The notes beneath the pieces were generated by a model. It searched no databases, was not told where the DNA came from, and saw only the letters and a program-made list of their open reading frames with translations. Source: Escherichia phage AV112. From it: a stretch of DNA of 64,000 bases. The number at the start of each line of letters is the position of its first letter. Position 1 is the stretch's first letter. Position numbers and translations under genes: made by a program. The stretch is taken from sequence record OR352942.1; one strand, 5' to 3'. Positions 62,958 to 64,000 of the stretch are shown here, in pieces.

Positions 62958-63590
62958 TCACAGTACGTTAGTTACAAGGGTAATGATTTCTTTGGACACA
63001 TTAGGGAAGTCAATGTAAGTATATTTACCACCGATCTTAATCTTAACATCATTTTCAAGAGAAGTAAACAGCTTTGATTCAGTTTCTGACATGTTGTACG
63101 CAAATATTCTAAGACAACCATCTCGACGAATTTCGATCTGACGAATACCTAGAACTCGTTTTGCAAATCGAACTTCCAAGTTACTACGGTTTTCACCGAT
63201 TTCTTTAACTTCAACTTTATCTTTAATATTTTCAAAAACAAAGTTTGCTAATTCATGCATTTCAGGAGTAACTCCACGTGCTTTTCTAGTGTTACGTTTC
63301 TGAAGAAGTTCTGGAGCATTTTCTTGGGCAAAGAGGTCTGCAGCTTTTTGGATAATATCCATTGCTTCGCCTGTTGCTATAAGTCCATCACCAGATTTTT
63401 CGACTAAACCTTTCTTAATCAATACACCAATGTTAGAGTTAACAACCGATGCATTGTATTCCGCTTCCAGAGCTTCACGGACATTGGCAGCAGTGGTGAA
63501 GTTGTTCTTAATGATATAAACCATTATTGCAGCAGTTTTTTCATTCAGAGCGTTTTCGGAAGCTTTGATGATGTAAGCAACTTTAGACAT
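62958..63590 (-). CDS. motA: MotA middle-transcription activator
   Basis: 210 aa (T4 211); conserved NSNIGVLIKKGLVEKSGDGLI; early promoter upstream. Confidence 0.9.
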   Translation of the reverse strand: MSKVAYIIKASENALNEKTAAIMVYIIKNNFTTAANVREALEAEYNASVVNSNIGVLIKKGLVEKSGDGLIATGEAMDIIQKAADLFAQENAPELLQKRNTRKARGVTPEMHELANFVFENIKDKVEVKEIGENRSNLEVRFAKRVLGIRQIEIRRDGCLRIFAYNMSETESKLFTSLENDVKIKIGGKYTYIDFPNVSKEIITLVTNVL

Positions 63591-63624
63591 TTTATTTCTC
63601 CAATTTGGTTGTTTTGTTTTGATA

Positions 63625-63660
63625 GGTCTATAATATCATGTTTGAAGCAAAAGTAAACTG
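63625..63660 (-). promoter_or_regulatory. Early-type promoter GTTTAC-N18-TATTAT (motA)
   Basis: Upstream of motA start. Confidence 0.6.
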
Positions 63661-63683
63661 TTTTGTGAGAAAAATGCACAAAA

Positions 63684-63700
63684 GGGAGCCGAAGCTCCCT
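63684..63700 (-). terminator. Hairpin terminator upstream of motA promoter
   Basis: GGGAGC-UUCG-GCUCCC then T-run on minus strand. Confidence 0.6.
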
Positions 63701-63775
63701 AATCATGTTTGTCCAACCAATACAGCCAAATCACTAGTGCAGCTATTGCACCGAGAAATCCTAAGGCTAGGGCAC

Positions 63776-64000
63776 TCAAAGTGCCTCCAAGTCTTTAGTG
63801 TACTCTGTCACAACATCAGTAGACTTCCAATACTCATTTTCTTCTTTCTTAGCTTTAGCTTCTTCTGCCAGTTTACGCGCTTCGTCGGAAGTGATATGGA
63901 AGATGTTAAGACCTACAAGTTTATCGACATGTTCTTTATACATTTCGATTTGTGCCAGCTCTTCAGTCAAAGCTTTACGAGTCTTGCCCTGAATCACAAT
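63776..64000 (-). CDS. 3' end of a gene continuing beyond the window (gene 52 topoisomerase subunit by T4 synteny, unverified)
   Basis: Open frame to window edge; product call rests only on T4 gene order. Confidence 0.4.
   Translation of the reverse strand: MVIQGKTRKALTEELAQIEMYKEHVDKLVGLNIFHITSDEARKLAEEAKAKKEENEYWKSTDVVTEYTKDLEAL

Follow-up and report, generated by a model that had tools for sequence, protein, structure and literature searches.

A TTG-initiated open reading frame (ORF) of 26 codons that overlaps the end of gene 52 in Escherichia phage AV112 is conserved in related phages, evolves under purifying selection and encodes an unusually hydrophobic peptide, and its position is taken by hydrophobic ORFs in other genera of T4-like phages. 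We consider it probable that this micro-ORF is a real accessory early gene, the product of which is made by reinitiation after translation of gene 52, resides in the inner membrane as a single helix and acts on a membrane component of the host or of the phage. As a well-supported gene of fewer than 30 codons that was missed by standard phage annotation, the micro-ORF is ordinary in kind, has already been called once by RefSeq and changes no major concept. The more interesting by-product of the analysis is the collection of unrelated micro-ORFs chained to gene 52, which is a tractable setting for studying the origin, turnover and action of phage micro-membrane proteins.

Anatomy and conservation of the micro-ORF

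The window, i.e., the whole stretch of 64,000 nucleotides analyzed here (OR352942.1), belongs, as judged from its sequence, to a T4-like phage of the RB69 group (Straboviridae, Tevenvirinae, Mosigvirus): in megablast searches, the region 63400-64000 is 100% identical to Escherichia phage AV113 (OR352943.1) and matches ~150 further Mosigvirus records at 95-99%. The micro-ORF is located between gene 52 and motA, with both neighbors on the minus strand (Table 1).

Table 1. Features of the gene 52 to motA interval, with positions numbered along the window
Feature	Coordinates	Strand	Description
Gene 52, 3' end (DNA topoisomerase II medium subunit)	63776..64000	-	Gene runs past the window end
Shine-Dalgarno (SD) GGAGG	63784..63788	-	4-nt spacer CACT to TTG; inside the last gene 52 codons (TTG GAG GCA)
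Predicted small hairpin GGCACU-UUG-AGUGCC	63774..63788	-	UUG in 3-nt loop; last two G of the SD paired
Micro-ORF CDS	63699..63779	-	26 codons, with TTG start and TAG stop; product MSALALGFLGAIAALVIWLYWLDKHD
Intrinsic terminator at the end of the gene 52 transcription unit	63670..63700	-	Stem-loop 63700-63683 and U-rich tract
motA early-type promoter	63630..63657	-	TTTACT-16 nt-TATTAT, TG upstream
motA (middle-period transcription activator)	62958..63590	-	Context gene

The original prediction, made from the DNA sequence, had described a TTG-initiated frame of 26 codons at 63699-63779 with an adjacent GGAGG at a spacing of 4 nt, a start overlapping the stop of the upstream gene, and a hairpin immediately downstream, and every one of these elements was found again. 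The TTG (63779-63777) and the TGA of gene 52 (63778-63776) share 2 nt in the context cTTTGAg, the micro-ORF lying in the -1 frame relative to gene 52; the GGAGG (63788-63784) is embedded in the final codons of that gene; and the TAG stop of the micro-ORF (63701-63699) has its last 2 nt inside the terminator stem. The 4-nt stop/start overlap permits termination-reinitiation. As for the short spacing between the GGAGG and the start, which had been offered as a reason for caution, Dhakavirus has an identical GGAGG-4 nt-ATG arrangement in front of a strongly constrained 34-codon ORF, and the GGAGG itself is invariant across all Mosigvirus and Dhakavirus loci compared.

The codons with which gene 52 ends (...TTG GAG GCA CTT TGA) include two rare choices. 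TGA is the stop codon in 7 of the 48 long ORFs of the window, five of these seven being ATGA or GTGA overlaps with the downstream gene, and GAG accounts for 15% of the Glu codons in the window; together, the rare TGA and the rare GAG create the overlapping start and the GGAGG. Translation of the micro-ORF thus appears to be coupled to termination on gene 52. A small hairpin is also predicted to form around the start. In a 37-nt context its predicted energy is -11.1 kcal/mol (z = -1.3, which alone is not significant), and in each of the two stem variants observed, one A to G and the other C to U, a G-U pair maintains the pairing. An analogous, stronger hairpin is predicted in Dhakavirus (L008/L009, about 806-830; -17 kcal/mol, z = -4.6). 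In both genera the hairpin encloses the overlapping gene 52 stop and micro-ORF start along with part of the SD, and it might explain, in structural terms, how translation would be strictly coupled to that of gene 52; no comparable start hairpin was predicted in T4, Kanagawavirus or the Klebsiella phages. At the other end of the micro-ORF, the terminator hairpin AGGGAGC-UUCG-GCUCCCU at 63700-63683, followed by UUUUGUGCAUUUUU, has a predicted energy of -15.7 kcal/mol (z = -3.9 versus shuffles). This hairpin is annotated as a terminator in related records, and the stem variants found in relatives preserve pairing.

With respect to existing annotation, the exact 26-aa sequence occurs once in public protein databases, as YP_010247053.1 ('hypothetical protein D299_gp206') of the RefSeq genome of HX01, the coordinates of which show the same 4-nt overlap with gene 52. 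Among the 29 annotated Mosigvirus records inspected, the gene is annotated in HX01 only, with AV113 and RB69, the latter a laboratory model, among the records that are without it. Some relatives have other ORFs annotated in this place, namely, in records PQ480333, OR544955, PQ511151, ON528737 and MZ234025, either an antisense ORF of 29 aa or ORFs of 44-61 aa reading across the terminator and the motA promoter into the start of motA; these annotations are probably spurious. A 53-aa ATG ORF (63545-63706, minus strand), likewise annotated in some relatives, was rejected as a candidate, given that the same three elements, terminator, promoter and start of motA, fall within it. Searches of Pfam, PHROGs and Rfam yielded nothing for the 26-mer or its region, with no Rfam match in 63400-64000, whether to an antisense RNA regulator like those that accompany type I toxin-like hydrophobic peptides (Hok/Ldr/Ibs/TisB type) or to any other family, and a pattern scan of genome contigs for the micro-ORF gave 0 matches. 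An 18-mer degenerate pattern did hit viral contigs, mostly contigs of 4-54 kb, and these hits were set aside as assumed chance matches. Family, domain and literature searches provided no pointer to the function of the micro-ORF.

Conservation of the frame in related genomes and the balance of synonymous and non-synonymous changes had been named at the outset as the features on which the coding status of the micro-ORF would turn, and both point to a protein-coding sequence. In a set of 27 non-redundant Mosigvirus loci drawn from GenBank, IMG/VR and metagenomes (a MotA scan of IMG/VR yielded 2 Mosigvirus loci), all but one keep the frame open over exactly 26 codons, with a TTG or ATG start. ATG replaces TTG in LF82-1 and CAU_ECP01 through a CTT to CTA change that is synonymous in gene 52; conservation of the start codon is in itself weak evidence because five of the six Leu codons, when placed before TGA, yield a start. 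Across the 26 loci, the 81-nt ORF contains zero indels, compared with 15 gap columns among the 128 aligned non-coding columns just downstream. When each variant allele is counted once (S = 18, N = 57 sites), codons 2-26 have undergone 10 synonymous and 7 non-synonymous changes, corresponding to a dN/dS of about 0.22 (binomial P = 0.0022), as would be expected of a small membrane protein under selection at the protein level, and all seven replacements (L4I, A5V, L9I, G10S, A14V, K24N and H25R) are conservative. By dN/dS, the micro-ORF frame is the best of the six frames. Of the remaining frames, one alone falls below 0.7, namely the antisense frame in which the third codon positions coincide with those of the micro-ORF (0.44, P = 0.10, in a 25-locus run), which is worse than the micro-ORF frame, yet not very different from it. 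The last 100 codons of gene 52, with a dN/dS of 0.08, give a stronger signal than the micro-ORF, for which the value of 0.22 derives from only 17 events.

The single Mosigvirus locus with a disrupted frame is vB_EcoM_JQD51 (PV204681.1; L015), in which a 5-nt tandem duplication of CTAGC ~15 nt into the ORF leaves 5 codons (MSALA*); the truncation may be either a natural knockout or a sequencing or assembly error.

The peptide consists of one 21-residue hydrophobic stretch (S2-L22) followed by a polar tail, DKHD, and within the predicted helix there are small-xxx-small spacings at A3/G7 and G10/A14. Of the 537 mechanically called ORFs of 20-40 aa in the window, 1.1% attain its 19-residue Kyte-Doolittle maximum of 2.28. 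Both the hydrophobic segment and its rank support the single predicted transmembrane helix that had been proposed, and the size and hydrophobic span of the peptide are those of generic small single-pass membrane proteins (≤~50 aa, with a span of ≥18-20 residues).

ORFs after gene 52 in other lineages

The sequence following the gene 52 stop was inspected in a survey of 80 loci around gp52 homologs from IMG/VR. Among the 16 lineage groups in which gp52 is ≥64% identical to that of AV113, 13 contain a hydrophobic ORF of 22-77 aa the start of which falls between -7 and +2 nt relative to the gene 52 stop, in most cases in an ATGA overlap: Mosigvirus (26 aa), Tequatrovirus (49 aa), Dhakavirus (34 aa), Kanagawavirus (49 aa), L090 (46 aa), L091/L093 (59 aa), L092 (26 aa), L094 (22 aa), L096 (29 aa), L097/L098 (32 aa), the Moon/Merlin-like phages (45-46 aa), the Klebsiella phages (23 aa) and L112 (77 aa). 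L095, a relative of L092, retains a degenerate GTG version of the L092 ORF. No hydrophobic ORF was found at the gene 52 stop in L089, L103/L104/L106 and L110, and none of the surveyed loci with gp52 ≤62% identical has such an ORF. Selection was analyzed in two of the other groups, and purifying selection was detected in each: the dN/dS is 0.12 (P = 3.5e-5) for the T4-type motA.1 and 0.09 (P = 1.4e-6) for the Dhakavirus 34-mer.

The T4 ORF, motA.1, resembles the micro-ORF in that it directly follows gene 52, with its start overlapping the gene 52 stop (xTGA), encodes a hydrophobic product that begins with Met-Ser, and is followed by the terminator of the gene 52 unit and the early promoter of motA. 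It differs in having 49 aa and a longer hydrophobic region with an internal Pro (VVPAV), whereas the Mosigvirus product has 26 aa and one segment, and in having an ATG start with a 7-nt SD spacing as opposed to TTG and 4 nt. The T4 protein is catalogued in UniProt as P39512, an 'uncharacterized 4.8 kDa protein in motA-Gp52 intergenic region', belongs to phrog_3487 and is annotated as a 'hypothetical predicted periplasmic protein'. Several databases call motA.1 a 'flagellar motor protein MotA' or a 'transcriptional regulator', names that evidently result from confusion. In a T4 omics data set, the motA.1 transcript is classed as early in the supplement, and motA.1 is absent among the rows listed in the proteome table (PMC9697503). 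Elsewhere in the literature searched, motA.1 appears in the main text of a single paper, and there only as the label of a terminator, and our searches for T4 Ribo-seq studies of small proteins or for work on the motA-Gp52 intergenic region found nothing relevant. In one T4-like metagenomic contig (L042), an internal deletion cuts motA.1 to 16 codons, which could be an assembly error. The truncation in JQD51, this truncation of motA.1 and the existence of three related lineages without such an ORF indicate that the micro-ORF gene is dispensable.

Homology among the products was judged by shuffle-calibrated alignments in 12 comparisons, in none of which, once their number is taken into account, was the 26-mer significantly similar to another product, be it that of T4 motA.1, the Dhakavirus 34-mer, the 23-mer of the Klebsiella phages or any of the others; L092, one of its two best leads along with the Kanagawavirus-type 26-mer described below, reached P = 0.011, uncorrected for 12 tests. 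The alignment of the 26-mer with T4 motA.1 is no better than those with shuffled sequences (P = 0.12 and 0.68), and a positive control, T4 versus Kanagawavirus motA.1, gave a P of about 0.001 or lower. An hmmscan comparison of the 26-mer with PHROGs did not retrieve phrog_3487 even at E values of up to 10, and the 26-mer has neither the length (~49 aa) nor the extended hydrophobic region of the MotA.1 family. In the absence of a significant alignment or of any hit in PHROGs and Pfam, the 26-mer is to be regarded as a positional analog of motA.1 and not as a demonstrable member of its family. Elsewhere, the alignments delineate one family comprising T4 motA.1, Kanagawavirus motA.1 and perhaps L090, and another comprising the Dhakavirus, L097 and L096 products.

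In anatomical terms, the Dhakavirus/VR20-type ORF of 32-34 aa (phrog_16377) is a close counterpart of the micro-ORF: it occupies the same place, with the same GGAGG-4 nt-start arrangement and a hairpin around the start, its product combines one hydrophobic helix with a short, charged tail at the C terminus, and its stop abuts the terminator. It differs in its ATG start and a GxxxGxxxG motif, and its sequence does not align significantly with the 26-mer (P = 0.09-0.35). Another comparable ORF is a second one, found in Kanagawavirus and in L091/L093, which, like the micro-ORF, encodes ~26 aa with one helix and an acidic residue at position 23, has a stop that abuts the terminator and a start that overlaps the preceding ORF in an ATGA-type arrangement; unlike the micro-ORF, it follows the motA.1 homolog and not gene 52 directly. 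Against this Kanagawavirus-type 26-mer, the Mosigvirus peptide shows 6-8 identities out of 26 in a fixed register, with a marginal profile score (z = 1.98, P = 0.028) and a best-offset P of 0.42.

This second hydrophobic ORF, of 25-26 aa, is unannotated in the Kanagawavirus phages PEi20, Kosakonia 305, CIP9 and Q7622 (L057:548-628, L058:542-622, L059:545-622 and L060:545-625) and lies ~175 nt after the gene 52 stop in L091 and L093. Its sequence is M(M)T[IF]YGLFVGMIFFLWII[YS]LVIEYFF, the L091 version being MITLHGLFVGTIFFLLIITLIIDYTF. The ORF is joined to the stop of the motA.1 homolog by an ATGA overlap, ends directly at the terminator and is kept across species that are ~82% identical, with an in-frame 3-nt indel at its start.

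Expression, action and alternative readings

In the scheme that we favor, the micro-ORF would close the gene 52 transcription unit as its final cistron. Ribosomes that end gene 52 at the UGA would start anew at the overlapping UUG, which in some isolates is AUG, aided by the GGAGG 4 nt upstream and, conceivably, by melting of the small hairpin that holds the start codon and half of the SD. The resulting peptide of 26 residues, nearly all of which would be helical, most likely inserts into the inner membrane of E. coli and probably acts early in infection by binding to or perturbing either the bilayer or a larger protein of the membrane; the gene would be accessory rather than essential. Small proteins of this general kind (<50 aa, one transmembrane helix, often missed by annotation) include bacterial AcrZ, MgrB and MgtS and Ac, 52.1, Imm and Sp of T4, and those that have been characterized usually act by binding a larger membrane protein. 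None of these proteins is known to have a sequence relationship to the 26-mer.

One may ask whether the frame is simply an incidental opening in the 3' untranslated spacer, hydrophobic on account of U-rich codons and devoid of functional expression. Open frames of 25 codons are expected ~18% of the time at the base composition of the window, the frame is unannotated in AV113, RB69 and >20 other records and naturally frameshifted in JQD51, and its TTG start and short SD spacing fit such an origin; nevertheless, we regard this reading as unlikely, given a synonymous excess that is specific to this frame (P = 0.002), the freedom of the ORF from the indels that are numerous in adjacent non-coding DNA, the rarity of both the stop and the Glu codon that create the start and the SD, a hydrophobicity in the top 1%, and the presence of hydrophobic ORFs with unrelated sequences at the same position in 13 lineages. 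The proposition that the real gene is the antisense ORF of 29 TTG-initiated codons (63709-63798, plus strand) appears highly improbable. The TTG of this ORF has no upstream SD, the ORF runs antisense into gene 52 in a unit that is transcribed early, the encoded product lacks hydrophobicity and is otherwise unremarkable, its synonymous excess is not significant (P = 0.10), and the equivalent frame of the T4 type contains a stop. It is annotated as a hypothetical protein in vB_EcoM-172859UKE1 and is open in the Mosigvirus consensus; its dN/dS of 0.44 falls below 1 because third codon positions are shared with the micro-ORF.

A further alternative is that the act of translation matters and not the peptide, such that ribosomes at the foot of the terminator protect the mRNA 3' end or block Rho or, with the stop codon placed in the stem, hinder formation of the hairpin and tune read-through into motA. 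This reading would account for stops that overlap or abut the terminator stem in Mosigvirus, Dhakavirus, L094, L097 and the second ORF of Kanagawavirus, but not for the T4 stop, located 4 nt before the stem, or for the first ORF of Kanagawavirus, which is not beside the terminator. It is compatible with the complete dissimilarity of sequences among genera that nonetheless share position, coupling and end point, and with a peptide that has almost no extramembrane residues for contact with a partner, yet under such a scenario neither purifying selection at the amino acid level (dN/dS 0.09-0.22) nor consistently extreme hydrophobicity would be expected. Moreover, the predicted fold contains no alternative anti-terminator pairing, and motA has its own promoter. 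We therefore consider it quite unlikely that translation of the micro-ORF serves such a purpose. Two additional candidates are likewise not supported. C-terminal extension of gp52 by -1 frameshifting was rejected, there being no slippery X XXY YYZ heptamer at GCA CTT TGA and none conserved in other genera; and a leader-peptide attenuator is at odds with the fold of 63665-63800, which keeps the terminator and contains no helix competing for its 5' arm, and with the lack of an Rfam match.

Returning to the interpretation of the micro-ORF as a gene for a membrane peptide, a broader and more tentative idea, which we rate as possible but on balance doubtful, is that the 3' end of gene 52 is a conserved cradle for hydrophobic micro-proteins across the enterobacterial T-even phages. 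Under this reading, the site may host one or two ORFs of 22-77 aa, the products of which are transmembrane helix for almost their whole length, that are translationally chained to gp52 and belong to at least 5 or 6 mutually unrecognizable families. That such families occupy one site implies that the ORFs either repeatedly arose de novo or were replaced there, or diverged to an extreme degree under a demand for nothing beyond a 'hydrophobic helix, made with gp52'. Subunits of the T4 topoisomerase have long been reported in membrane fractions, and, as a matter of speculation, the peptide could be functionally linked to gp52. One possibility is that co-translational insertion of the peptide recruits the gene 52 mRNA and the nascent complex to the membrane.

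Variation between the terminator and motA

Several additional polymorphisms were observed in the vicinity of the micro-ORF. The loop of the terminator hairpin (window 63683-63700; L006, L012, L013, L016-L019 and L021) shows an exact flip between UUCG and CGAA, the stems being identical, which suggests inversion of the hairpin; in other isolates the terminator has a UUCGAA loop or a stem with one more, compensated base pair (GGGAGCC-UUCG-GGCUCCC). Just after motA.1 in a T4-like locus (L049, IMGVR_UViG_2974787500), the U-tract and the spacer to the motA promoter are apparently deleted, and the hairpin continues straight into ...AAAGCATACTGTGGTA.

About half of the Mosigvirus isolates contain an insertion of ~320 bp between the gene 52 terminator and motA, which is absent from the window. 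The insertion (L003:911-1126, L007:1014-1229, L044:711-926, and L024, between terminator and motA) carries an ORF of 71 aa (MSKMKLTQNTTTRFGKV...) and lies between two copies of the early promoter, 5'UTR and initial codons of motA (ATGTCTAAA), with a stem-loop in addition. By its organization, it looks like a cassette of early promoter and stem-loop that was gained or lost by recombination between the repeated promoters, and the motA promoter of the window looks like a hybrid of the two promoter copies of the insertion. Finally, an ORF encoding a hydrophobic product of ~30 aa is located upstream of motA in two different lineages (L030, about 1000-1090, and L032, about 1330-1420; METNQIIFLVFWLGIMVPCFLALCKSVFGK and MENNQIIFLTFWLIVMVPCFLALVKSVIGK), in each case with its own early-type promoter and SD, and may represent a mobile cassette for a small membrane protein.
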